DNA from: a virus
Taxonomy: Duplodnaviria; Caudoviricetes
Reading direction: 5' to 3' (one strand)
IMG/VR virus record: IMGVR_UViG_3300033067_000803
Span: 1 to 38,830 of that record
Length of the DNA stretch: 38,830 nucleotides
Shown: in pieces, positions 13,059 to 35,330 of the stretch
Position numbering within the stretch: the stretch's first letter is position 1
Layout of the letters: each line of letters starts with the position of its first letter
Translations under genes and position numbers: made by a program
Notes under the pieces: model-generated
Databases searched by the model: none
What the model saw: only the letters and a program-made list of their open reading frames with translations
Told to the model about the DNA's origin: nothing

Positions 13059-13687
13059 AGATCAAAGACATTTTAAGCAAGGTCATCAAGGGCGAGGCGT
13101 TGACGGATGCCGAAAAGCAGTTCCTGACTGAATACGACGCTGACAAGGCCGTCAACGATGCTCGCACGGAGCTTGAGAAGAAGCTTAAAGCCGCAGAGGA
13201 CAAGGCCAAGGAGCTTGAGGCAGAGGCTGGCAAGGCGAAAGGTGCTGACGCGACTGTTGCGGCCTTGCAGAAGAAGGTTGACGAGCTCATGAAGAAGAAC
13301 GCTGACGTTGAAGCCAAGGAGAAATCCCGCGCACGTATGGACGCGATCAAGGCGAAGGCAGCGGAAAAAGGCGTATCACCTCTTGACGGTTTCAGCGAGA
13401 AGACTTTCGAGGCTCTTCTTGACCGCGCAATTGGCGAGGTTGACGTGTCCAACGCGACCGCGCTTGACGCTGCTCTCGAGGCGTTCAAGACTGACAACGC
13501 CGTGATTATCAAGGCGCAGTCCGGGACCACGACCGCAGTCAAGGGCAACCCAAATCCCGCTCCGTCAGCCGGACCGAATCCTTTCAAGAAGGAAACTTTC
13601 AACCTGACCAAGCAGATTGAATTGCAGTCGGCCAATCCTACCGAGGCCAAACGTCTGGCGACTGAAGCAGGCGTGACAATCGAATAA
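13055..13687 (+). CDS. Capsid scaffolding protein
   Basis: Lys/Glu/Ala coiled coil with C-terminal NPFKKETFNLTKQ..L...NP..A..LA motif; directly precedes the capsid gene. Confidence 0.85.
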   Translation: MKIKDILSKVIKGEALTDAEKQFLTEYDADKAVNDARTELEKKLKAAEDKAKELEAEAGKAKGADATVAALQKKVDELMKKNADVEAKEKSRARMDAIKAKAAEKGVSPLDGFSEKTFEALLDRAIGEVDVSNATALDAALEAFKTDNAVIIKAQSGTTTAVKGNPNPAPSAGPNPFKKETFNLTKQIELQSANPTEAKRLATEAGVTIE

Positions 13688-13724
13688 TGATGTTGTTGGT
13701 TAAAACACAAAAAGGAGAACACAC

Positions 13725-14711
13725 ATGGCAGCAGCTATGAAAATCGCGGATGTCGTAACGAATACGGCTTTCGCAAAATATTTCCGTCAGAAATTGGCGG
13801 AAAAGTCCGCGCTTATCCGCAGTGGCGTCGTTTCGTCCGATCCGGCCCTTGCTGCTCTTATCGCGGCTAACGGCGGCGTGGGAGGTACCACGATCAACCT
13901 TCCTTTCTGGAACGATATCACGGGTACTGACGAGGTTTTGAGCGAAACAGTCGCTTTGACTCCTGCGAAGATTACTGCTGGACAGGACGTTGCAGTGTGC
14001 CTCCGTCGTGGCAAGGCATGGTCCGTTTCCGACCTGGCCGCAGATTTCGCATGTGACGATCCTGTTGCGGCAATCGCAGACCGGATCGCAGAGTACTGGG
14101 CTCGCCGCCGCCAGGCTTCCGTGTTCAGCGTCCTCAAGGGCGTGTTCGCGGACAACGTGGCGAATGACGCTGCTGACCTGGTTCTCGACATCTCCGGCGA
14201 GGTTGGGGATGACGCTGTTCTGAACAAGAACACGCTGAACATGGGCGCACAGAAGCTTGGTGATGCCAAGGAACTGCTCGTCGCGGTCGCCATGCACTCC
14301 ATGGCCGAAGCCCGCCTGAATGAGGTCGGTGGATCGTCCTATGTCGCACGTGCGGCTGACAATCCCGCGTCACTCTCGCGCTACAACGGTCGCGCAATCA
14401 TCATGGATGATTCGGTTCCGTATGACGCTGCAACGGGTATTGCCACGATCTACCTGTTCGGCGCAGGGGCTATCGCACTGAACGATGTGCCCAGCAAGGT
14501 TCCGTTCGAGGCAGGCCGTGACATCCTGTCGAGCATGGACGTGCTGGCATCGCGCAATGCGTGGATCGCCCACGTTCGCGGCATCAAGTGGAAGGGAACC
14601 GCCGCTGGCGCAACCCCGACCAATGCGGAGCTCGAAGCCGCCGCAAGCTGGGATCGCGTGTACGAGCAGAAGGCCGTCCGCGCTGTCGCGATCAAGTGCA
14701 AGATCGCTTAA
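13725..14711 (+). CDS. Major capsid protein
   Basis: GGTTINLPFWND, RGKAWS..DLA, DP..AIA.RIAEYW, TPTNAEL..AASW.RVYE.K; strong SD AAGGAG. Confidence 0.9.
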   Translation: MAAAMKIADVVTNTAFAKYFRQKLAEKSALIRSGVVSSDPALAALIAANGGVGGTTINLPFWNDITGTDEVLSETVALTPAKITAGQDVAVCLRRGKAWSVSDLAADFACDDPVAAIADRIAEYWARRRQASVFSVLKGVFADNVANDAADLVLDISGEVGDDAVLNKNTLNMGAQKLGDAKELLVAVAMHSMAEARLNEVGGSSYVARAADNPASLSRYNGRAIIMDDSVPYDAATGIATIYLFGAGAIALNDVPSKVPFEAGRDILSSMDVLASRNAWIAHVRGIKWKGTAAGATPTNAELEAAASWDRVYEQKAVRAVAIKCKIA

Positions 14712-16113: not shown

Positions 16114-19100
16114 ATGACTCCTCGTCAAAAGCGTCTGGCCATGGAACTTCGCAAGTATGAGGCCGGAACAAACACGGCATTGATGAAGGTCTTGAAAAAG
16201 GCAATCATCAATGTGCGTTCGTCAATATCCGGTAAGCTTGCTGAACTTGGAAATGCGGCAACAAACTCGAAGGCCCGAGAACAGGCCATACAGGCCGCTG
16301 TAGACGCTCTTGAGAAAATGCAGGAGTCTATGTCATCCCACCTGAAAAGCCTCACAGACGTGGCAGCACGCAACGCTCATGACGATGCCACGGAGGAGCT
16401 TAAAGAGTCAGGCAAGAAAGACCTTGTCCAGTATGATCCTGCGAGGTCTGAACGTTACATATCCTATCTTGCCCCGCGTAATGCGGAAAGGCTGGCGGCT
16501 GTATTCACGGACAAGATGCAGGAGAACCTTGTCCGCACACTGCGTTTCGCATACATCGATGTTGCCAGGAAGGCGGCTGTTGAGGGGTTGACACATGCCG
16601 AGGTCAATAAGGAGCTACAGGACCGCTGGCAGAAGGATAGCGGCAACGAAAGCCTTTACAGGTTCGTCGACAAGTCTGGACGTGCATGGGAGAACGCCCG
16701 TTACTTCCAGATGCTCGTGAGAACGAACGCCCAGCGAGTATGGACTGACAGCTATTGCGACTCCCTTGCATCGAATGGCTTCAAATTGGCTCGTATCAGC
16801 GACGATGGGGACCCGGACTGCCCGATTTGCTCGGCATGGGAAGGCCGCATTGTCTGTGTCGCAGGAAAACAGAAGGGATTCCCGACCTATGCTGACGCAC
16901 AGGAGGCTGGCGTATTCCATCCGAATTGCACCCATAGGCTTAGATACATCGATGAGACAATAGACGCTGACGAGATCGCCTTGCAAGCAAAACACCCTCC
17001 GTCAGACATGTCCAAGGAAGCCATGCAGGAGCAGAAAGACAAGATCGATGTGCAGAGGTATGTCAGTCAGGGGCAAAATGCGAATGAAGCCAAGGTGTCT
17101 GTTGCAGCAGACCGTCTTAGCCGCAATATCAGGTCAGGTCTTTTCAGTGATGAACTGGCAACCGTTGCCAGTCAACTGCCTAAGGATGTGCTAAGGAAGA
17201 TGTTTGATAACGGGATGATACCGCGCTTTTCTGTAGCCAAGAAGGAAGACGAGCCATGGAGCAAGATGCGCGGTGTTTTGTTGATCCCGAAGGATGCAAC
17301 GCCGGAGGAGCTTTACTTTAAGCTTGGAGGCGGTTCAGAATTCACCAAGCAGGTGGCCGTTAAACCCGTAGAACCTCAAAAGAAGCGTGATTTATTCCCA
17401 GAAAGCGTGAACGGACTCAAAACTGTGCGCGATCTTGGAGGGTCTACTGGCGCGAAGCTTGTTGAGGACGATCTTGGTAACAGGTTTGTCATGAAGCGTG
17501 GCGCATCGCCGGAGCATCTGCGCAGCGAGTGTGACGCTGATGCCGCCTATATCGCCGCAGGAGTAGCCGTGCCGGAATTCAGGCTTTATGAAGATTCTGG
17601 CACACCTGTGAAGCTTTCACGCTTCATTGATGAGGCAAAAACGTTGTCAGCATTGAGCAAGGATGAACGCGAGACTGTCTACAATCAGCTTCGAAAAGAC
17701 TTCCATGTTGACGTGCTTCTCGGGAACTGGGACGTTCTTGGACTTGGCATGGATAACGTGCTGGTTGACAAAAACGGTAAGGCGTGGAGAATTGACAACG
17801 GCGGGGCTCTCGGATTCCGTGCCCAGGGCGAGAAAAAAGACAAGGAAGACTGGGAAGCCGGATGGATTGACGATGTGTGGTCCATGCGCAACCTTCACCC
17901 GGACAGCAAAAAGGCCAACGCGAACCTTGGTTCTGCGTTTGGATCGGTTCCGACTGTTAAACTCGTGAAGGCAATACGTGATGGCAAGTTTGAAGGCCTT
18001 CTCGAGAAGCTTCCTGAAAAGGATAAGGCTATTATCCGTGAACGCATCAAGGAAGCTACCCAGCTCGCAGACAGAGGTGAGCAGTTCGAGGCAAGCGGAT
18101 ATGAGGGAGGCTATACTGACAAGGTTCTATGGCACTCGTATGCGTTGAGCAAGGAAGGTTTCCGCGAGGAAGCTAAACTAAACGTTGGCGAGGACAATTA
18201 CGGGTTCTATCGGTCCGGAGGTTCAACGCGGCCCATTTCACAGACGCATGCCAATGTGACGGCTGATATCCTCGGGGCTGTCAAGACTATCAATTTCCAC
18301 CTTTCAAAGGGCGACAAGGATTTCAACCAGTCGAAGATAGATGCAGCGTTGAGCCATGGCAAGCTGATTGAAAAGGCTGTCGCGGAAGGATGGAAGAATG
18401 CAGCAGAGGCCGCAGCAGCTATCAAGATGATTCAGGACACGGTAGCCAGAAAGAACAAGGCCGAAATTGGCAAGTTCACGGCAACGTCACTTGAACCTCA
18501 ATCGGTAGAAACCGTCAAGATCGGTGAAAAAGGCAAGGCCCCGAGAACATATACAAGCCTGACAGACCATATTCATGACTACATGCGTAGAAACGGAGCC
18601 GATCCAAGCATTATCGTGAAATGGCAGCAGGCGCAGGGCGGTAATTCATGGAATGACGCGGCAGTCAAGTTTAAGATAGCCCAGGAGAGCACACGCCTGG
18701 TTGATGAAAAATTCACATGGCATGGTGAAGGTGTCAGCAAGCCTGAAACCAATTACAAGGCTGCAAAGAAAACATCTGAAGCGGTTATGAACAAGATTAT
18801 TGAGGCAAAGGCCGCCTACCAGAGCGCAATTGTTCTATGCCTCGAAAATTCAACCTTCAGTCATAACGACAGGTCTAAAAGGACGGTTTACCTATCAAGA
18901 ACTGAAAAGGATACGGTTATACGCAAGTATGGAATCAAGGTAGGTGAATCAAGCGACTACCAGCGTGGAGCTTCAGAAAGCCACGGCGTGTTTAAAACCG
19001 TTGTCGTTGAGGGTGACTGCCTTACTGTTGGTGAGGTCCCATACTCTAATATCCTCGGTTTCTACATGCTTGAGCGTGAGCCTGGAAACATGGTCCCGTC

Positions 19101-19212
19101 TTTCCTTGGAGACCATGAAAACGAGATTGTTTGCGACACACGGGGCATTAAGTTCAAATATGTCGGATCAACCAGGGCTGGGCAGTCATTTGACAAGTTC
19201 AAGGATAGTTGA
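16114..19212 (+). CDS. MuF-like minor capsid protein fused to kinase-like and putative ADP-ribosyltransferase domains
   Basis: FVDKSGRAW..Y..M.VRT, CPICSAWEGR, FHPNCTH (MuF/minor capsid); GGSTGA, VMK, DVLLGNWD, RIDNGG (PI3/4-kinase/HipA-like); LSR..ASES..ENE (R-S-E ART-like). Confidence 0.8.
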   Translation: MTPRQKRLAMELRKYEAGTNTALMKVLKKAIINVRSSISGKLAELGNAATNSKAREQAIQAAVDALEKMQESMSSHLKSLTDVAARNAHDDATEELKESGKKDLVQYDPARSERYISYLAPRNAERLAAVFTDKMQENLVRTLRFAYIDVARKAAVEGLTHAEVNKELQDRWQKDSGNESLYRFVDKSGRAWENARYFQMLVRTNAQRVWTDSYCDSLASNGFKLARISDDGDPDCPICSAWEGRIVCVAGKQKGFPTYADAQEAGVFHPNCTHRLRYIDETIDADEIALQAKHPPSDMSKEAMQEQKDKIDVQRYVSQGQNANEAKVSVAADRLSRNIRSGLFSDELATVASQLPKDVLRKMFDNGMIPRFSVAKKEDEPWSKMRGVLLIPKDATPEELYFKLGGGSEFTKQVAVKPVEPQKKRDLFPESVNGLKTVRDLGGSTGAKLVEDDLGNRFVMKRGASPEHLRSECDADAAYIAAGVAVPEFRLYEDSGTPVKLSRFIDEAKTLSALSKDERETVYNQLRKDFHVDVLLGNWDVLGLGMDNVLVDKNGKAWRIDNGGALGFRAQGEKKDKEDWEAGWIDDVWSMRNLHPDSKKANANLGSAFGSVPTVKLVKAIRDGKFEGLLEKLPEKDKAIIRERIKEATQLADRGEQFEASGYEGGYTDKVLWHSYALSKEGFREEAKLNVGEDNYGFYRSGGSTRPISQTHANVTADILGAVKTINFHLSKGDKDFNQSKIDAALSHGKLIEKAVAEGWKNAAEAAAAIKMIQDTVARKNKAEIGKFTATSLEPQSVETVKIGEKGKAPRTYTSLTDHIHDYMRRNGADPSIIVKWQQAQGGNSWNDAAVKFKIAQESTRLVDEKFTWHGEGVSKPETNYKAAKKTSEAVMNKIIEAKAAYQSAIVLCLENSTFSHNDRSKRTVYLSRTEKDTVIRKYGIKVGESSDYQRGASESHGVFKTVVVEGDCLTVGEVPYSNILGFYMLEREPGNMVPSFLGDHENEIVCDTRGIKFKYVGSTRAGQSFDKFKDS
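17154..17172. promoter_or_regulatory. Palindromic parS/operator-like site, copy 4
   Basis: ACTGGCAACCGTTGCCAGT (opposite orientation of the central base). Confidence 0.6.
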
Positions 19213-26408: not shown

Positions 26409-26519
26409 GCCGTCTCGGAGTAGAGACGGCGCCGTCCATCCGGGTGCAACCGGATGGCTAACCCATGGGAACCGCGGTCCCGAACGAGTTACGAGCCAGG
26501 TCAGCGCCGTCATGGCTGA
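26409..26519 (+). promoter_or_regulatory. Structured RNA leader upstream of the methyltransferase
   Basis: Perfect 8-bp hairpins at 26409-26430 and 26436-26457; alternative pairing of 26425-26432 with 26504-26511. Confidence 0.5.
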
Positions 26520-26553
26520 GGGATGGCAAGTAGCGTATCAAAGGAACACGCCC

Positions 26554-27258
26554 ATGAAAAGCCGATTAGGTGCGGTTATAAAATCGCTTGAAATTATACC
26601 CGCCTACCAAGACGACCACGTCGCATTGATCCACGGTGATTGCCGGGATCTGCTACCACGAATAAAAGATACTCAGGGGGTTGTAATAGTCTCGGACCCC
26701 CCTTATGGAATCAAATGGGTCCACTCGAGTAATCCTCGCCCTATCATGGGTGACGATAAGCCGTTCGATCCATCTCACTTGCTTAGGTTCAAGTGCATTC
26801 TGTTCGGCGGCCAACACTACCACACCAGCCTGCCTCAGAAGGGGTCCTGGATCATATGGGACAAGCGTTGCCCGCACTGCGGAGGAAAGAAGGCCTGCAA
26901 GGTAGGACCGTGCCGGACAAACGATATTGGCGACTTCGAGGATATCTGGTGTTCATTCCACACGCATAGGACGATTTACCGCCATTATTGGAACGGAGGC
27001 GGCAAGGCTACTGAACGGGGAAACAAGAGAATCCACCCGACACAAAAACCTGTCGTGCTCATGCGTTGGCTGATTGAATCCTACACGACTCCTGAAGACC
27101 TCATTATTGACCCGTACGCGGGCTCGTGCGCGACTCTGCTGGCGGCAAGGTCTTTTGGCAGGTATGCAATCGGGATCGAATTGGACGCGCAATACATAGC
27201 CCCATCGGTCGAACGGCTTTCAACACCTCTTTCATGTCCGATCTTGAGAAATCTCTAA
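26554..27258 (+). CDS. N6-adenine/N4-cytosine DNA methyltransferase (beta class)
   Basis: IHGDC, SDPPYG, HPTQKP, DPYAGS..T, GIELD. SD AAGGA before ATG 26554; in-frame ATG also at 26512. Confidence 0.9.
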   Translation: MKSRLGAVIKSLEIIPAYQDDHVALIHGDCRDLLPRIKDTQGVVIVSDPPYGIKWVHSSNPRPIMGDDKPFDPSHLLRFKCILFGGQHYHTSLPQKGSWIIWDKRCPHCGGKKACKVGPCRTNDIGDFEDIWCSFHTHRTIYRHYWNGGGKATERGNKRIHPTQKPVVLMRWLIESYTTPEDLIIDPYAGSCATLLAARSFGRYAIGIELDAQYIAPSVERLSTPLSCPILRNL

Positions 27259-27277
27259 GTTTAGAACGTGGCTATTG
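27259..27277 (+). promoter_or_regulatory. Putative late promoter (secreted-protein cluster)
   Basis: GTTTA GAACG TGGCTATTG; ATG 2 nt later. Confidence 0.65.
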
Positions 27278-27279
27278 TC

Positions 27280-29211
27280 ATGAAATCAATAGCCCTATTC
27301 CTTTTCTGTTTCTGTTCGGTCTTGGTGAGAGCGCAGGGCCGGACAGAAACGTTAAATATTGAAATCGGAAGATCGTCAACCGTGTCGATAACCGCCACGG
27401 AGGAAACGGATACAACAGTCAATGTTGTAGTCAAAAGCGGTGGAATGGATTACGACCTATCTGCATGGCGCGGAGTCCTTTGGTACGGAATCCAAGGTAG
27501 CGGAATGGCTGTAACGAACACTTCCACAAGCTATAACGTCTTCACGTTCGACCTGCCCACTTCAAAAATCCCGACAAACGGGCTTTATGAGCTTCAAGTC
27601 TTCGGTGTCACGACAAACAGAACGGAAGAATGGGCGCGTGGCCGTATGTCTGTAAGGCTGAACCCGTCAAAAGGATCGCTTCCAGCGGAATGGACATCTT
27701 ATCCGTCATTTTACGGACCGCTGACAAATAGGCTTGCAGGGCTCGAGGCCTGTACAAACGGCTGGAACGCTGCACAGGAAAACGCTATACAGTTCGCCAC
27801 GACAAACCGTTCGGTTAGGATATTCAACCCGTCTAATTTGAGCGAGTATTTAGACGGGGCTGGTAATATGTACGTTGTCAGTAACTTCTGGAACATGTCG
27901 TTCTCGCCTGATTTCGATGACAATTATAATCCGGCTCAAACCAACTACCTGTTTACCGCAGTAGATCAACGCTATTTTGAGGGTGAAATTGCATACTATT
28001 TTTTGGGCAATCCAGTTTATTTATCATATTGGGATCTTCGCCCGACTGTAATTTATCATAAAACAAGCAGTCTGGTTGCAACCCGCACCTACCTTGCGAC
28101 CACAAATGCTTATGTACTTGATGCCGTCGTTAATACAGGAGCATCAGGTCATGCTTATATCAGTCACTGGGCGACGACCAACCTAATCGGAACTCTTGCT
28201 TTAGAGTCTGGCGTAACGGCAGGGCTTGCCAGCAAGGTTTCAACAAACGATCAAACCTACTTGAATACTGTTTCTAAAGCCAATACTGCCTTGCAGGTTC
28301 AGACACAACAGGTTTGGGTTGCAACGTCAGGTACAGCCGGAACCGTTACAGGATCGCAGTCGCAACTTGTTTCTCGCGCATGGCAGAATCTGGCAAGCTC
28401 TACAAACTGGACGTGGACGAATGACGGCAGGGAAATAACGTTGACTGGGTATAATGGTCCAAGCAATGTGATTATCCCGGACATGCTTGACGGGCTTCCA
28501 GTAGCCATTCTAAACCAGACTTTCAGCGTTTATGACGCACAACAAGACGAGTACATTGGGAAAGGCATAACATCAGTTAGAGGCGGTTCTAACCTCAAGG
28601 CTGTCATGGCTTCAAGTTTCCGTAACTGCTCGGAATTGATGGATGTTGATCTAAATTCAGTGACCAATATTGAAATTGCAGCATTTTTCTCATGCAAAAA
28701 ACTGCGGTCAATCAACATAAAATCAATTGTTGAAATAGGTGAATCCGCTTTTGACAACTGCACCAATCTGACGCAAATCACGTTGCCGAGCTCATTGACA
28801 ACAATAGGCCCGTATGCATTTGCAGTCAGGGAAACGCTTCAGTCACCCTTTAATTTGTATTTCACAGGGTCAGCTCCTTCTATTGTTGGCGATCCTGCTA
28901 TATTTGATTTGCGTCTATCCGTAACGAACTACGTCACCAGCCCGACCGCCACAGGCTGGGGTTCGACCTTCGGAGGTATGCCAGTCGTGCGCATGCCAAT
29001 GACAGGAACGATTTCCACCACATCAATAACGCTTGGTGGCGTTTCCCGCACAAACTGGCCTACCGGAATGACAGGCGGCGAGGTGACGAACATTGTCAGA
29101 TCAATTGTCTATACCAATCAAACATGGGGCGCAGCCGGAACGAACATCATTATCCGGACGTATTGGGATGCGACAAACAGGACCTTTGCGGTCGAGGAGA
29201 TTACACCATGA
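27280..29211 (+). CDS. Signal-peptide-bearing fibre/receptor-binding-like protein with BspA-type leucine-rich repeats (LRR_5)
   Basis: MKSIALFLFCFCSVLVRA signal; ITLTGYNG..NVIIPD.LDGLPV cap; IGESAFDNCTNLTQITLPSSLTTIGPYAF repeats; BppU-like N-domain suspected. Confidence 0.75.
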   Translation: MKSIALFLFCFCSVLVRAQGRTETLNIEIGRSSTVSITATEETDTTVNVVVKSGGMDYDLSAWRGVLWYGIQGSGMAVTNTSTSYNVFTFDLPTSKIPTNGLYELQVFGVTTNRTEEWARGRMSVRLNPSKGSLPAEWTSYPSFYGPLTNRLAGLEACTNGWNAAQENAIQFATTNRSVRIFNPSNLSEYLDGAGNMYVVSNFWNMSFSPDFDDNYNPAQTNYLFTAVDQRYFEGEIAYYFLGNPVYLSYWDLRPTVIYHKTSSLVATRTYLATTNAYVLDAVVNTGASGHAYISHWATTNLIGTLALESGVTAGLASKVSTNDQTYLNTVSKANTALQVQTQQVWVATSGTAGTVTGSQSQLVSRAWQNLASSTNWTWTNDGREITLTGYNGPSNVIIPDMLDGLPVAILNQTFSVYDAQQDEYIGKGITSVRGGSNLKAVMASSFRNCSELMDVDLNSVTNIEIAAFFSCKKLRSINIKSIVEIGESAFDNCTNLTQITLPSSLTTIGPYAFAVRETLQSPFNLYFTGSAPSIVGDPAIFDLRLSVTNYVTSPTATGWGSTFGGMPVVRMPMTGTISTTSITLGGVSRTNWPTGMTGGEVTNIVRSIVYTNQTWGAAGTNIIIRTYWDATNRTFAVEEITP

Positions 29212-29936
29212 ACCGCCTAATCATTTTGTTTTTATGTTTTGCCGGAACGTTGCAAGCCGCCACAACAAACAAGTTCCTGCAGGTTCTTATTAACGATGCC
29301 GGACAGACCCGTCCTGCTCAATCGATTGCCACGCCGCAGCAGGTCAACTTGGCAATTGATCAAGCAACGGCCACATTATCAGACTCACAGGTGCTGCAGG
29401 CTATTGCGAGCAACGCCCAAGCAAGGGCCCAGGCCGCGTATAATAGAACCTCGCTTTACTCCACCAACTTTACTGTCACGTCAACGGTTTACGTTCAATC
29501 AATCGGAGGGGTCCCGTACGATGCCAGCAATCAGACTATCCGGTGTCACAGTGTCCAAATCGTGTCGACCAATGTAGAAATCATTGCATCAGTTAAACAA
29601 ATCCCCCTTGTTACTCCTGTCCTTGATTGGAGGCAAAAGCTAAACATGGGGGCGTGGACCAATATCACGGCGACTGTTGTAGAGACTTCCATTCCGGCAG
29701 GTGTCACGGATGCGGCGCGGGCCTATAAGTTCACTCTTCCGAAGCCAAGCAATACTTCGGCCTTTTTTCGCGTCATAGACAACTCGACAGGGGCAAGCGG
29801 TTCTGGGCTTTACTGGCTCGTTTTTGGTGGAATCTATGTTGATGGCCGTGCGGGCATGACAGGATCAATCACCAACAACGTGGGTGCAGTCTATTCGATT
29901 CGCGGCGGCATCGTGGTAAACCCGACACCTCTCTAA
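29208..29936 (+). CDS. Signal-peptide-bearing fibre-like protein
   Basis: SD GAGGAG; MNRLIILFLCFAGTLQA signal; C-terminal GMTG...YSIRGGIV. Confidence 0.7.
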   Translation: MNRLIILFLCFAGTLQAATTNKFLQVLINDAGQTRPAQSIATPQQVNLAIDQATATLSDSQVLQAIASNAQARAQAAYNRTSLYSTNFTVTSTVYVQSIGGVPYDASNQTIRCHSVQIVSTNVEIIASVKQIPLVTPVLDWRQKLNMGAWTNITATVVETSIPAGVTDAARAYKFTLPKPSNTSAFFRVIDNSTGASGSGLYWLVFGGIYVDGRAGMTGSITNNVGAVYSIRGGIVVNPTPL

Positions 29937-29943
29937 GGACTCA

Positions 29944-30270
29944 ATGGAAATCCTAGATAATATCTTTCTCTTTATCATGAAGGGGCTTTTTCTTGAAGTA
30001 GGCAGCACGTGCAGCGGAGCACGTACATGCATTGAATGCCTCGTTGTGGCGGTTTGCTGCTGTCTGGTTGACATGGCTTTCAGCATCAAGATATTTCTCG
30101 TGGCGTTACTCGCGGCAATCGTTTGCAATGCGTTCCGGTGCTGGATGCTTATTGAGTGGATTCAGAACGGTTGGCCACACTATCAGGTAATGCATGATTA
30201 CGGCGGGATGGCCATGGTTGCCTGTACCTTTTTCATTATAGCCTCTTTTCATCCAAGAAAGAAAAAATGA
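29944..30270 (+). CDS. Minimal exosortase/archaeosortase-family membrane protease
   Basis: LEVGSTCSG (Cys), IVCNAFR (Arg) and MHDYGG (His) in the family order, separated by hydrophobic helices. Confidence 0.75.
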   Translation: MEILDNIFLFIMKGLFLEVGSTCSGARTCIECLVVAVCCCLVDMAFSIKIFLVALLAAIVCNAFRCWMLIEWIQNGWPHYQVMHDYGGMAMVACTFFIIASFHPRKKK

Positions 30271-31016
30271 AAAAAAACATAATTTTATGCATGTTTCTTT
30301 TTTCTTTGTCTGCCTCGGCTAGCGAACACACGCCAATAGCTTCACTGTTCAGGATGCTGTTCTGGAGGGGCGGGGACTGGGCGTTAATGGCAGCCTACGA
30401 TAAGAATAACGCCAGTCAACAGGCGGTTACAACCTCGTCAAATGCTGTAATTACGGCCACCAATACAGCAGCAGAAGTCGAAAGTTATGTCGACACGAAT
30501 AATGTTGTCACCTTCTCGTTCGATTGGCACAGCCCAAACCGTTTGCCCTATCACGAAAGACAGAACGTCCTTGGGCGCACGGTATGGGTTCAACCGACAA
30601 ACATTTTAGGGGTGGTTCACGAGGACCACTACGTTGCGTTCAACGAGTCAGCTACCACGAACCCAGCGGTTATTATGATTGAATACGCCAGGACGCTGGA
30701 CAACGGAACAGTAGAGCGCATCAGCTCACCCACCGTCACAAACAGTTATCCGAATATGTATCCGGTCACACTGCAAAGCGGTGTCCACACCTGTTATTGG
30801 TTCAGATGCGCGGTCCCTGTTGCTTACACAAACAGCCTTAGAGACTGGAACGGAGAGGCCCTGTTCGGATCGCCGGAAGGGTCAGGAAAAGGATTCGACC
30901 TCCTGGGGACCTTGCTGATTGATGACGGTGACAATATCTGGGAGGGCGCGACCACCAACATGGTGTTCGGCGCGGTTACAAATCAGGTAAAGAACGGGAT
31001 CGTACTGGAGAGATAA
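30267..31016 (+). CDS. Signal-peptide-bearing fibre-like protein
   Basis: MKKNIILCMFLFSLSASA (AxA) signal; C-terminal EGATT...QVKNGIV; ATGA-coupled to the exosortase-like gene. Confidence 0.7.
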   Translation: MKKNIILCMFLFSLSASASEHTPIASLFRMLFWRGGDWALMAAYDKNNASQQAVTTSSNAVITATNTAAEVESYVDTNNVVTFSFDWHSPNRLPYHERQNVLGRTVWVQPTNILGVVHEDHYVAFNESATTNPAVIMIEYARTLDNGTVERISSPTVTNSYPNMYPVTLQSGVHTCYWFRCAVPVAYTNSLRDWNGEALFGSPEGSGKGFDLLGTLLIDDGDNIWEGATTNMVFGAVTNQVKNGIVLER

Positions 31017-31017
31017 A

Positions 31018-31332
31018 ATGAGGGCTATTATCATTATCATGTTTTTGGCTATCGTGCTTTTCATTTGTAGTTTGTTTGTGTCCAACTCTAAGAAAGAAGC
31101 GGAGATACAGCCGCGCACAGATGAATGGCAGCAAGGCGAGTTTATCACCCTCCGGCGTATCTATCCACATCAACGTTGTGGCGGTCAGCTCGTCTTTAAC
31201 GGGCAATCAGAACGTGCGCCTTACTCTGAAAAGGATACGTTCTACACTCATGTGTGTGACCACTGTAGCGCAACAAATCAAATCCTCAATCAGACATGGC
31301 CACAATACAAGCGTGAATGGAGGTCGAAATGA
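31018..31332 (+). CDS. Membrane-anchored zinc-ribbon protein
   Basis: N-terminal TM segment; HQRCGG...HVCDHC. Confidence 0.6.
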   Translation: MRAIIIIMFLAIVLFICSLFVSNSKKEAEIQPRTDEWQQGEFITLRRIYPHQRCGGQLVFNGQSERAPYSEKDTFYTHVCDHCSATNQILNQTWPQYKREWRSK

Positions 31333-31553
31333 GGATTATTCTTGCAATATTCCTGCTTTCCAGCGTATGCCGAGCTGAAAATACAAACAAGGTTTCCAAG
31401 GCTGAAAAGGAACGGAAAACAGAGCATTCAGCCAATAAGATCGTCCTAAAGTCCAGGCCAAAAGGAAGCACGAAGGAGAGTGACTGGAAGGTTGAACGCG
31501 AATACCCGCTGATGTTTGCCAACAACAAGAAGGATAAAAAAAAGGCTAAATGA
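31329..31553 (+). CDS. Small basic protein with signal peptide
   Basis: MRIILAIFLLSSVCRA; SD GGAGGT. Confidence 0.6.
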   Translation: MRIILAIFLLSSVCRAENTNKVSKAEKERKTEHSANKIVLKSRPKGSTKESDWKVEREYPLMFANNKKDKKKAK

Positions 31554-31642
31554 TTTGGGAAGTTCCCAAACGCCACGAGATGAAAAAATACCCATCTTTT
31601 CTTCTTAATTCCGTGGCGTAACTTTTAGGAGGATTGGAAACG

Positions 31643-31972
31643 ATGAGCAATGAAGAGATGATTTTGGATGTTATTACACGGGCGCGAGTTGCTTTGCAGG
31701 AGGCACAGGAAAAGGCTGATGACACGCCACGGCCTCAAAACGCCTGTCCAGCGCATGACTCCCAATTCGCGCTGACAAAGGCGCAGTCACAGGCCATGGA
31801 CACGCTTTTGCTGATGGCGCAACAGGCAATGAAGGGAGGAAATAAGTTTGGTAAGACGTGTTCTATTTTGGAGTATCTGACGCGTCCGTGGCCTTGCGTG
31901 TTCCTGGCCTTCGCGGTCTTCTCGCCAAACTTTCCGATGATATGTGATACGGTAAAAACTTTTTTCAAATAA
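31643..31972 (+). CDS. Membrane protein, possible holin/antiholin
   Basis: SD AGGAGG; CPAH motif and C-terminal hydrophobic segment; lysis-cassette position. Confidence 0.5.
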   Translation: MSNEEMILDVITRARVALQEAQEKADDTPRPQNACPAHDSQFALTKAQSQAMDTLLLMAQQAMKGGNKFGKTCSILEYLTRPWPCVFLAFAVFSPNFPMICDTVKTFFK

Positions 31973-31991
31973 ACAAAAAACAGGAGGTATA

Positions 31992-32186
31992 ATGGATAAG
32001 ATCAAGATGGCTATTCAGAGCCCGGTGTTTTTCGGGTTCGTGAGGGCTTTCGTGGCGGCTGGCTGCGGTGCGGCAGTTAAGCATGGCGTTGATATCGGAA
32101 GCTATGTTGAGCCTGTCACGGCTGGTGTTGTGATGGTGCTGGTTATGCTTTGGAGCAAGAGCAGCAAAACAGTAAAAAGGAAATAG
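31992..32186 (+). CDS. Putative holin
   Basis: 64 aa with two hydrophobic segments and basic C-terminus WSKSSKTVKRK; SD AGGAGG. Confidence 0.6.
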   Translation: MDKIKMAIQSPVFFGFVRAFVAAGCGAAVKHGVDIGSYVEPVTAGVVMVLVMLWSKSSKTVKRK

Positions 32187-32199
32187 GAGTGGTATCTTT

Positions 32200-32715
32200 A
32201 TGGGTAACAAGAAGTCTAAACCTGCCAAGATGCAGGAGAAGGAGGAGAAGATGAAGGAGAAGAAGGATAAACTGCACACGAAGCTGAAAGGCGGAGCTGC
32301 TGTTTGTACAATTGCGATGCTGATGATGACTGGATGCCAGACGGCAGACCCGGCCAGCAGGTCCAACCGTGCCGAGTACGGCGATATCTGCCCGCGCATC
32401 GAGATCAACGGATGCAGCAACGTTGTCAGTGTTACCAACATCGTCGGGGATGGCGTGTATGCGTCCGCGGACGGAGGAGGCGACACCCAGAGCAATACGC
32501 CCACCCAGACAACCGACACCAAGCCGGAGGTCGCCGTGGGCGTTGGAGGTGGCTCCGCAGGTACTGGCGGCGGCTCCAATCAGGAGACTGGGCTGACCGG
32601 GACGGTACTCAAAGCCCTGAAGGGCCTTGAAGGAGTGATAACGCCCAGCAATGAGAAAGCAGTCACGGAAGCGGTATCCGCAGCCTGCAAAGATGGGACC
32701 TGCGCACCGAAATAA
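32200..32715 (+). CDS. Putative lipoprotein (spanin candidate)
   Basis: Highly charged N-region, then AAVCTIAMLMMTGC lipobox. Confidence 0.55.
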   Translation: MGNKKSKPAKMQEKEEKMKEKKDKLHTKLKGGAAVCTIAMLMMTGCQTADPASRSNRAEYGDICPRIEINGCSNVVSVTNIVGDGVYASADGGGDTQSNTPTQTTDTKPEVAVGVGGGSAGTGGGSNQETGLTGTVLKALKGLEGVITPSNEKAVTEAVSAACKDGTCAPK

Positions 32716-32735
32716 CAACACTCTTTGTTATTCCG

Positions 32736-32773
32736 AACCCCTGCTGCGGTTGACCTGCGGCAGGGGTTTTGTT
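32736..32773 (+). terminator. Intrinsic terminator between the convergent late and integrase units
   Basis: AACCCCTGCTGCGG-TTGAC-CTGCGGCAGGGGTT followed by TTGTT. Confidence 0.85.
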
Positions 32774-32774
32774 A

Positions 32775-34277
32775 TTATGCTGCTCCTTTTAATGTTTCAG
32801 AAATCGCCTCTAAGTGTGACATAAGTCTCGCCAGGGGCGCCATTTGAACATTTGATGGCGAGAAAGCGTTTTTATCAACGCCAGCTTGGTCAAAGTCGAG
32901 TTCGACTTTTTTGGAGTCAGGATTATAGCGAGGTGGAACAGGAAGGGCCAAAAGGAGCCGTTTCTGACTCGCGGAATCCATCTTGCGCCACACGTCACGG
33001 ATGTTTTTGAACGTGTTGAAAATTAAAACAGCACGGTCAAAGTAGCTTTGAGGATCGACAATTTCAACGGCATTTTGCTCTAATTCCGCTATTTTTCCAT
33101 TATATTTAGCCTGTAATGCCTTATAGGTTGGTTGATCAAAGTCACCATCGATGTACTTTTCAGCGAGCTTTGAAAGCTTGTCTTTGTAGCTCTCAATATC
33201 CTTGATTCTCTGGTGTTCGACTCTCTTTAGGTCGTTTCCTTTTTTTAGCATGAAATCTAGAGCAATTTCAATTGATTTCGCCAGCTTTTCGGAAATAACG
33301 GCAAGCGTGGCTATCGCGTCTTCAGTAGCATTTACAAGGTCGGCTGCACGGATATTGGCATGCCCTTGTGGACAGCGGTAATATGGATACAGTCTGCCGT
33401 TCTTTGACCTTGAGTTGGAACCTTTGAGCCTTGATCCGCAAACGGAGCAGGTGCAAAGTGAAAGGTGGAAGCCGACATGTGATGGTTTATCCCGCCTCGG
33501 TTTCCTCTTGTCCTCGGCATAACGGGCTTCAAGCTTATACCATGTTTGAGGAGTGACATATCCGGGGAACGCGGCAAGGATATCCGAATTTGAAAGGCGC
33601 GTCCTGATGATGCCGCCATAGATAGGCTCGTGAAATATCCGGTTAGCCTTCCCACGGTCAAGACCCAAGGCCTTAAATCCAGCTATAGTGGCCGTCAGGG
33701 AGCTTGCGCCGCTGGCGTATGTCTTTAGCAGGGTGGTAAGCCTTGAAGCGTCTGGGCTCGAAATTTCGAGCACTGGGAGGCCGTCTGCTCTCCTTGCGAT
33801 CTTGAAGCCGTAAGGCGCGTGGTAATTCCATCCACCTTTGGCCGTCGTGGCTGTCATGCCGGATCGGGATCGGGCTGAACGGATATCATTATCGAATTGA
33901 GCGGAAGCAAACATTATCGCACTCATGAACTGTCCGGCAGGATCGTCGGAGATAGGTTCAGAAACGCTTAGGAGCTGGGTCTGGTGGGAGGCAAGCTTGG
34001 CCCTTATGGCAAGTCCGTCTGTCGCATTGCGTGAAAGCCTGTCAAGCCTGTGAACGATTAGAAAGGATGCTTTCTTTTTCCTGCAATCGTCCAAAGCCTT
34101 GATTAGTCCAGGTCTGTCAGCAGTCTTTGCAGACTCGCCAGCGTCCTCATAATGGGACAGGATTGTAATGTCGTGCCGTTCGCAATACGTCTTAATTTCG
34201 GCAAGCTGTGTCCCCAGCGATGTGCCTTTGATTTGGTCATCACTTGAAACACGTGTATATGCGACGGCTGTTTTCAT
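32775..34277 (-). CDS. int: Large serine recombinase (integrase)
   Basis: AYTRVSSDDQ catalytic Ser, DRLSRN, APYGF recombinase domain, CSVCG...YYRC zinc ribbon, coiled coil. Confidence 0.93.
   Translation of the reverse strand: MKTAVAYTRVSSDDQIKGTSLGTQLAEIKTYCERHDITILSHYEDAGESAKTADRPGLIKALDDCRKKKASFLIVHRLDRLSRNATDGLAIRAKLASHQTQLLSVSEPISDDPAGQFMSAIMFASAQFDNDIRSARSRSGMTATTAKGGWNYHAPYGFKIARRADGLPVLEISSPDASRLTTLLKTYASGASSLTATIAGFKALGLDRGKANRIFHEPIYGGIIRTRLSNSDILAAFPGYVTPQTWYKLEARYAEDKRKPRRDKPSHVGFHLSLCTCSVCGSRLKGSNSRSKNGRLYPYYRCPQGHANIRAADLVNATEDAIATLAVISEKLAKSIEIALDFMLKKGNDLKRVEHQRIKDIESYKDKLSKLAEKYIDGDFDQPTYKALQAKYNGKIAELEQNAVEIVDPQSYFDRAVLIFNTFKNIRDVWRKMDSASQKRLLLALPVPPRYNPDSKKVELDFDQAGVDKNAFSPSNVQMAPLARLMSHLEAISETLKGAA
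32823..32842 (+). other. Putative attP core: tRNA 3'-end fragment
   Basis: AAGT-CTCGC-CAGGGGC-G-CCA = 3' T-loop, T-stem, acceptor strand, discriminator and CCA; lies within the int 3' end. Confidence 0.65.
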
Positions 34278-34487: not shown

Positions 34488-35330
34488 TTATTCCTTTGTC
34501 TGCTCCAGCAATTGCTCGGTTATTGACTTCTCTGGCGGCTCTGACTCGGGCTGTGTGCATTTTGCTTCAGCAGGTTTTGATTCCTTCTTGACTGATGGAG
34601 TGCTTTTTGTGGCCTTTGTCACTTTGTTCCTTGCAGTCAACGCCTCGTCTCCTTCAACGAGATCGCGCCTCAATACCGAATCACGGATCATATCCGCAAT
34701 CTCTGAATCTTCAACTTTAACACCTTCTGCTATTTTCCGCAATTCCCTTTTGACTGACTGTATAACTGGTTCAGACATGATGATTGCGCCTACAACAAAA
34801 CGGTTCACACACTGAATCTTCTCGTAAACATCATCCCGGACGTTCTTTTCGACTCCTTCTTTTGAGACGAGGAATAGTGTTTCCAGTGCTCGTTCATCAC
34901 GTACAGACACCTGAAAAAGATCGAACCTCGCAACCATATCCCACGCGATTGGCTGTTCAAAACGGAGCCGGTATACTTGCCAGTCCGCGCCATTGGTCAA
35001 TATGATCCACTGTATTCCCTTATTCGCGCCATATCCAACGGCCTGGCGCAGGTGGGCCTCTTTAAGCTCTGTACCGATTGCCTTGCATTCGATAAGAAAT
35101 TGAATCTTATCCCCGATCTTCACGGCGATATCACAATAGGTCCCTCGAATTGCAAGCTCGCTAGTCACCTCAAGGTATTTTTCATAGCCGAACACATCTG
35201 CCAGTATGTCAGTAATTACGGAAACAGTGTCCGACTCGTTCAAGTCTCGCGACTTTGCGATATTCAATACTTTCTGAAACTTCGGGACAACTGAACAAAA
35301 ACGCTCTTCAACTTTTTTAGGAATCTTCAT
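34488..35330 (-). CDS. Stand-alone HsdR N-terminal-like PD-(D/E)XK nuclease
   Basis: NESDT, VFGY, YCDIAV, IECK, QAVGY, ILTNG motifs. Confidence 0.8.
   Translation of the reverse strand: MKIPKKVEERFCSVVPKFQKVLNIAKSRDLNESDTVSVITDILADVFGYEKYLEVTSELAIRGTYCDIAVKIGDKIQFLIECKAIGTELKEAHLRQAVGYGANKGIQWIILTNGADWQVYRLRFEQPIAWDMVARFDLFQVSVRDERALETLFLVSKEGVEKNVRDDVYEKIQCVNRFVVGAIIMSEPVIQSVKRELRKIAEGVKVEDSEIADMIRDSVLRRDLVEGDEALTARNKVTKATKSTPSVKKESKPAEAKCTQPESEPPEKSITEQLLEQTKE

Follow-up and report, generated by a model that had tools for sequence, protein, structure and literature searches.

The window, i.e. the whole stretch of DNA analysed here, is a complete virus record of 38,830 bases, and its terminase, portal, major capsid, tape measure and serine integrase genes identify it as a temperate tailed phage. 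A single public contig that spans the locus discussed below, and may share the window's source, differs from it at 0 letters. Elsewhere in the window, a PAPS-reductase-domain protein (PF01507; 4861-6141) is encoded among the replication genes, and a DNA methyltransferase gene (26512-27258) lies within the tail region. The 1032-aa minor head protein (16114-19212) has a head-morphogenesis match that ends near residue 310, with no PHROG match to its remaining 700 residues. Beside the integrase, a restriction-endonuclease-like gene (34488-35330, minus strand; phrog_17239, E 1e-82, and a weak endonuclease match) is possibly a lysogen defence gene. Positions 27268-32715 hold a run of late genes whose products carry signal peptides or membrane anchors; this run occupies the usual tail-fibre position and is conserved across related phages. 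The features of this region are as follows:

27268..29211, plus strand: fibre/adhesin-like mosaic protein with a signal peptide and BspA-type leucine-rich repeats
29208..29936, plus strand: 'up', exported protein with a signal peptide and a weak tail-fibre match (PHROG 295, E 0.0016)
29935..29939, plus strand: AAGGA resembling a Shine-Dalgarno site, 4 nt from the mini-exosortase ATG and overlapping the stop codon of the preceding gene
29944..30270, plus strand: mini-exosortase (type 1), 108 aa, from profiles, AlphaFold2 and an alignment of relatives; three predicted TM helices between a short acidic N-tail and a basic C-tail
30010-30012, 30136-30138 and 30193-30195, plus strand: codons of the triad Cys23, Arg65 and His84
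30267..31016, plus strand: 'dn', exported protein with a short classic signal peptide, a conserved hydrophobic helix, a long helix and a beta domain
31018-31332 and 31329-31553, plus strand: two small exported or membrane proteins, found after dn in several relatives
31634..32715, plus strand: likely lysis genes, comprising the next three
31634-31972, plus strand: membrane protein
31992-32186, plus strand: holin-like protein (PF23987, 21.3 bits, below the cut-off of 27)
32200-32715, plus strand: lipoprotein-like, as read from the sequence
32735..32769, plus strand: strong terminator-like hairpin closing the late operon, before the convergent integrase
32775-34277, minus strand: serine integrase, convergent with the late operon

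The original prediction described a 108-aa ORF with ordered motifs, its own ribosome site and an ATGA overlap with the next gene, and each of these is found in the sequence. The motifs are, in order, V19-G-S-T-C23-S-G, N62-x-x-R65 and H84-D-Y-G87, and the TGA stop overlaps the ATG of dn. The opposite frame is interrupted by stops. No notable terminator separates the gene from the hairpin at 32735, and no promoter specific to it is conspicuous (12 sites found, 9.0 expected). The neighbouring proteins end in AVEEITP, VVNPTPL and GIVLER, as had been stated, and none of these ends is of the motif-TM-basic type. A scan of all window ORFs of at least 60 aa for a C-terminal TM helix with a basic tail flagged two, both antisense to real genes, and detected no motif-TM-basic sorting signal. 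The dn protein has no family match above cut-off among the NCBIfam, Pfam and PHROG profiles, its structure model is of low confidence (pLDDT 49.8), and a structure search with VIA-align gave nothing clear (best Z 5.4). The C-terminus of up weakly resembles that of dn.

The mini-exosortase scores above the curated cut-offs of both superfamily profiles to which the original prediction had pointed, namely TIGR04178 (29.4 bits, cut-off 23) and Pfam Exosortase_EpsH (PF09721; 34.2 bits, cut-off 25.7, E 2e-8), and all six type-1 relatives scanned also pass TIGR04178. The Pfam match covers model positions 150-248 of 254, i.e. the C-terminal catalytic core alone. The Cys/Arg/His triad of the exosortase superfamily is described in the parts seen of a preprint by Haft. 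With the EpsH/XrtA/XrtB/ArtA proteins the phage protein shares the CSG, NxxR and HD.G motifs in the same order, a clean alignment with the host cores of Kiritimatiellia and a predicted structure that matches exosortase models. It differs from these proteins, which have about 300 aa and eight TM helices, in being phage-encoded and in having 108 aa with four predicted helices, three of them TM. It is 11-22% identical to host exosortase cores (27 aligned rows drawn from 54), and a PEP-CTERM-type substrate, such as accompanies the canonical enzymes, was not found near it (0 window ORFs of at least 60 aa). It also fails the canonical subfamily models TIGR02602 (15.6 bits against 105.55) and TIGR03109 (20.2 against 208). 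The subfamilies XrtK, XrtM, XrtP, XrtR, XrtS, XrtX, ArtB and ArtE, whose models of 150-168 positions are the shortest curated exosortase subfamily models seen, resemble it in being small and in giving weak core matches. None of them is listed for the query at E <= 1, and the type-1 relatives score 13-21 bits against their cut-offs of 55-200, with matches that start near model positions 55-67, so that about 45-55 N-terminal residues are missing. Judged by its sequence, the mini-exosortase is thus a member of the exosortase superfamily that lies outside every named subfamily.

Single-sequence searches are nearly blind to this protein. A search of 1.84 billion representative proteins recovered two genuine relatives, 109 and 110 aa long; four of its seven matches and one long repeat protein were dropped as compositional noise. 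A profile built from the two relatives retrieved 13 proteins, the query included, among 703 candidates; 11 of them are full-length (one called 17 residues longer), and two of 77 aa begin after Cys23. Together with one cluster member and two genes read from contigs, the 11 profile matches make up a set of 14 full-length type-1 proteins of 106-110 aa, with pairwise identities of 33-94% (median 49%). Conservation of the triad in homologues had been named beforehand as a test, and Cys23, Arg65 and His84 are kept in 14 of 14, in register with the host cores. They are among 21 invariant columns, which include C23, S24, G25, N62, R65, H84, D85 and G88. Pattern scans of viral, metagenome and genome contigs with alignments A1 and A3 yielded no confirmed locus; two of four DNA-pattern matches (L008 and L010) were dropped as chance matches in unrelated chromosomal DNA. 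No exosortase match was obtained in 50,697 GenBank phage records with three query sequences or in the PHROGs, and a scan of viral contigs for the core pattern likewise found none.

The restriction of the match to the last 100 of the 254 Pfam positions, and the two shorter database relatives that lack Cys23, might suggest a decaying, captured 3' fragment of a host exosortase gene. This explanation is largely refuted and we regard it as very remote, because the 14 relatives share a common start and length, and the gene has no internal stops, its own ribosome site, fixed synteny and a substitution pattern of purifying selection (pN 0.28 and pS 0.85 against the relative L011, with saturated synonymous sites; dN/dS about 0.19 against L009). 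The flanking genes at like distance have pN of 0.19-0.28. Against the same explanation, the 27 aligned host cores share only 11-22% identity with the query, and the 56 matches of the type-1 profile in 401 Kiritimatiellia-class genomes are all weak (best E 2e-9) and lie in frames of at least 291 aa. A close full-length parent was absent from the 7,994 longer proteins scored, itself a weak negative; ragged ends and relaxed selection were likewise not seen. These sequence comparisons show the phage's mini-exosortase gene to be intact and subject to purifying selection, and family membership and maintained function are jointly very probable. The identity originally proposed, a phage-encoded exosortase-family protein that is little more than the catalytic core with a conserved triad, is upheld by profiles and alignment, and none of the three contrary outcomes named beforehand (no profile match, loss of the triad, a decaying host-gene fragment) was observed.

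The AlphaFold2 model of the protein (pLDDT 70.8, pTM 0.57) has helices at residues 2-14, 25-43, 48-75 and 80-101. Acidic residues mark the N-tail and basic residues the C-tail throughout the family, and most of the type-1 proteins also have a basic first loop. The helix order and the charge of the tails together predict an N-out/C-in insertion with three TM helices, and Cys23, Arg65 and His84 would then all lie on the periplasmic side. In the ESM Atlas the model matches an exosortase A model (TM 0.77 over 107 residues) and a putative exosortase H (TM 0.72), both below the naming bar. The same resource offers as leads three clusters (70-119 members) of EpsH-domain proteins of 106-116 aa from bacteria and archaea, at TM 0.87-0.88. 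Foldseek found no match in the PDB or BFVD at E 0.001, VIA-align returned only generic helical bundles (best Z 9.5), and no solved structure of any relative was found.

An alternative is that the protein is one of several interchangeable parts with which the lysis module attacks the envelope, acting as a membrane hydrolase or as a holin-like protein with three helices. Class I holins are of similar size and have the same N-out/C-in three-helix layout. Profile and PHROG searches recognised no endolysin among the window proteins that they covered, and relatives carry GDSL hydrolases (L012 and L020) or DUF1353 proteins (L004 and L020) in the same region. However, a holin needs no invariant Cys, Arg and His across three lineages (see below), other holin candidates are present in the window, and the type-1 gene lies inside the up/dn pair, before the lysis genes. 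A role in lysis therefore appears improbable. The GDSL hydrolases and DUF1353 proteins occur in varying sets in the lysis regions of these relatives (L012:11849-12406, L020:10180-10752 and L004:11498-12028). In L012, a gene that by eye reads like elongation factor P (13432-14001) adjoins the end of the prophage in genome G001, and is likely to be the integration site.

Two further types of mini-exosortase were recovered, both in prophages of Kiritimatiellia-class genomes. Type 2 proteins have 146-150 aa (L031:1429-1869, minus strand; L070:1501-1953; L074, about 1500-1914), and their genes lie directly 3' of a distant dn homologue (hhalign 74%, E 3e-5), which ends in a conserved LKLAMPPLD tail. 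The single type 3 protein has 116 aa (L076:2125-2475, minus strand, on G098:C114; TIGR04178 58.8 bits). It is encoded two genes downstream of a dn homologue without the first TM helix, between a lipoprotein gene and a gene that by eye resembles those for DUF1353 proteins. Both further types retain the triad, and the identity among the three types is 15-23%. Type 3 resembles the host cores (22-29% identity for most) more closely than it does type 1. A single origin of the three types is not rejected (p-AU 0.71, long branches). The lipoprotein gene that directly follows the type 3-associated dn (L076:2697-3554, minus strand) has no Pfam or NCBIfam match; its His-Gly and Asp-x-Cys motifs recall those of caspase-like peptidases. 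Related genes occur in genomes titled Kiritimatiellia bacterium, Verrucomicrobia bacterium and Armatimonadota bacterium (the last on a 1.4-kb contig), in a further bin, and in two other genomes from the Kiritimatiellia-class set. These occurrences point to Kiritimatiellia as the probable host class.

The gene context is available for three of the 14 type-1 genes (the window, L011 and L009). All three loci have the order up, mini-exosortase, dn, with a stop/start overlap between the last two, and one of them is just 34% identical in its flanks. The gene before up is a fibre-like or exported one, and the L011 contig begins inside up. In eight related phages without a mini-exosortase (L001-L004, L012, L014, L018 and L020) up and dn are directly adjacent. 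The dn proteins of these eight phages begin with a header, consisting of a TM helix, a basic amphipathic linker, a second helix and a G/A-x-K motif, whereas at each of the three type-1 loci dn carries a short classic signal peptide, with predicted mature starts S-E-H-T-P, S-E-S-T-P and G-E-P-T-P (cleavage sites placed by eye). As the type-1 profile is blind to types 2 and 3 (the locus L069 is negative with it and positive with wider profiles), absence of the enzyme was judged with TIGR04178 on whole records and with a pooled mini-exosortase profile. The eight loci come from six viral records and two prophage contigs; TIGR04178 had no match in any of these, and the best pooled-profile match had E 0.4; the record of L003 stops 772 bases past dn.

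Across the 15 loci with both up and dn, the header TM helix is absent from four, all of which have a mini-exosortase, and present in 11, eight without the enzyme and three with it (Fisher p 0.026, for loci that are not independent). For type 1, the pairing of enzyme with short signal peptide may reflect nothing more than linkage, because the two genes overlap. The fourth header-less dn, however, is accompanied by the unrelated 116-aa mini-exosortase two genes away, and there linkage is no explanation. On the tree of up a single clade of type-1 phages is rejected (p-AU 0.009), which indicates that the two states have been exchanged or repeatedly lost; on the dn tree such a clade is not rejected (p-AU 0.13). 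Descent of the header from an exosortase was rejected (hhalign E 0.25), and three genomes gave no sign of the header as a common host signal.

The best explanation that we can offer, a tentative one, is that the mini-exosortase tethers or matures the phage's own exported dn protein, acting on it as a minimal membrane cysteine protease/acyl-transferase. The gene lies in the late operon, where overlaps couple it to up and dn, and its product would insert in the predicted orientation with the triad facing the periplasm. By homology with ArtA and the exosortases, an acyl-enzyme would form at Cys23. In the last and weakest step, signal peptidase would free dn and the enzyme would re-tether it to the membrane, by transfer of an acyl or peptidyl group to the new N-terminus of dn ([SG]-E-x-T-P in the three type-1 loci). 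The mini-exosortase would thus replace the additional N-terminal membrane header of the enzyme-free relatives. For ArtA, cleavage, lipid attachment and a need for the conserved residues are reported in the portions seen of PMC6098224 and of the Haft preprint. The literature found, as far as its text was available, does not include N-terminal acylation among the exosortase reactions described.

Real but indirect support for a link to the flanking exported proteins comes from the fixed synteny, from the three mini-exosortase lineages beside dn homologues and from the alternative N-terminus of dn. Against dn as the target, the motif-TM-basic signal was not found in the window, and the orientation of the dn signal peptide is opposite to that of a canonical exosortase substrate. 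In each of the three type-2 loci a header and a mini-exosortase occur together, and a frameshift splits dn in L074, where the enzyme gene is intact. Moreover, the second helix of the header looks cleavable in several relatives, and the header may therefore not be an anchor; E-T-P also follows the header of L002, which has no mini-exosortase. The original prediction that the enzyme matures or anchors the flanking exported proteins is accordingly favoured by synteny and by the alternation with the header, but it is weakened by the eight relatives in which the flanking genes do without it. This suggests that the mini-exosortase is one of two solutions or an accessory, rather than a core maturation step.

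The alternation with the header and the missing sorting signal would also fit a non-catalytic membrane chaperone or scaffold, which holds dn or the up/dn pair during export in place of the header helices, and half of the usual exosortase fold is indeed absent. Such a protein would hardly need its catalytic positions, which belong to the 21 columns that stay invariant at a median pairwise identity of 49% and which types 2 and 3 also retain, making this alternative a rather poor prospect. N-glycosylation of the exported proteins was considered and rejected, as there is no sequon excess and STT3 was not found in five incomplete genomes.

Another explanation, about as likely as that of dn as the target though still on the unlikely side, directs the enzyme at the host: late in infection it might clip PEP-CTERM or other anchored host surface proteins, or jam the host exosortase, in order to shed matrix or receptor proteins and so ease release or block superinfection. 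Long exosortases are present in 282 of the 401 Kiritimatiellia-class genomes (with 150 of the 321 matches listed) and PEP-CTERM proteins in four of the five genomes with these prophage genes, so that substrates of the right topology exist in these hosts. The predicted side of the triad is the canonical one, the gene is patchily distributed in the manner of accessory genes, and the type-3 gene is not adjacent to dn. However, action on the host leaves unexplained why three distant lineages lie within two genes of a dn homologue, and why header-less dn is found only where a mini-exosortase is present. The lack of a standout promoter counts against an exclusion gene expressed in the lysogen, and the N-terminal helices that may confer specificity appear to have been lost.

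Certain known systems offer parallels. The XrtF protein of Flavobacterium johnsoniae, as described in the sections seen of PMC10936215 and PMC12188702, likewise belongs to the exosortase family and is paired with a dedicated neighbour, with no tripartite substrate known, but it is chromosomal and required for biofilm formation. Profile searches with the mini-exosortase and its relatives gave no XrtF match. A sortase B of huge gut phages, which has its substrate upstream (bioRxiv 10.64898/2026.10.24.761521, consulted in part), is similarly a phage-borne Cys/His/Arg sorting enzyme that adjoins an exported phage protein; it differs in its unrelated soluble sortase fold, its Gram-positive hosts and its canonical C-terminal sorting signal. 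The word 'exosortase' has 0 occurrences in the main text of that preprint. In the literature searched, mostly non-subscription and in part as excerpts, no report of a phage, prophage or viral exosortase or of a virus-encoded archaeosortase was found; one passage met there concerns TIGR03118 proteins. A phage-borne sorting enzyme of Gram-negative bacteria was thus not found in print.

A broader proposal is one that we consider distinctly speculative: phages of Kiritimatiellia might run a sorting pathway of their own, in which fibre-like late proteins are exported across the host membrane, tethered by a three-helix mini-exosortase that was recruited or re-shaped three times, and collected onto virions or the cell surface at lysis. 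If this were true, a protein of 106-110 residues would be the smallest self-sufficient intramembrane cysteine transpeptidase, and would act on an N-terminal rather than a C-terminal signal. According to the available part of the Haft preprint, it is open whether exosortases are one-step transpeptidases, and what the minimal catalytic unit is. A natural, selected core of 108 residues with a candidate partner in the adjacent gene offers assays and structural work an unusually small starting point. The mini-exosortase further draws attention to exported late proteins as an unstudied module in the phages of a barely cultured class.
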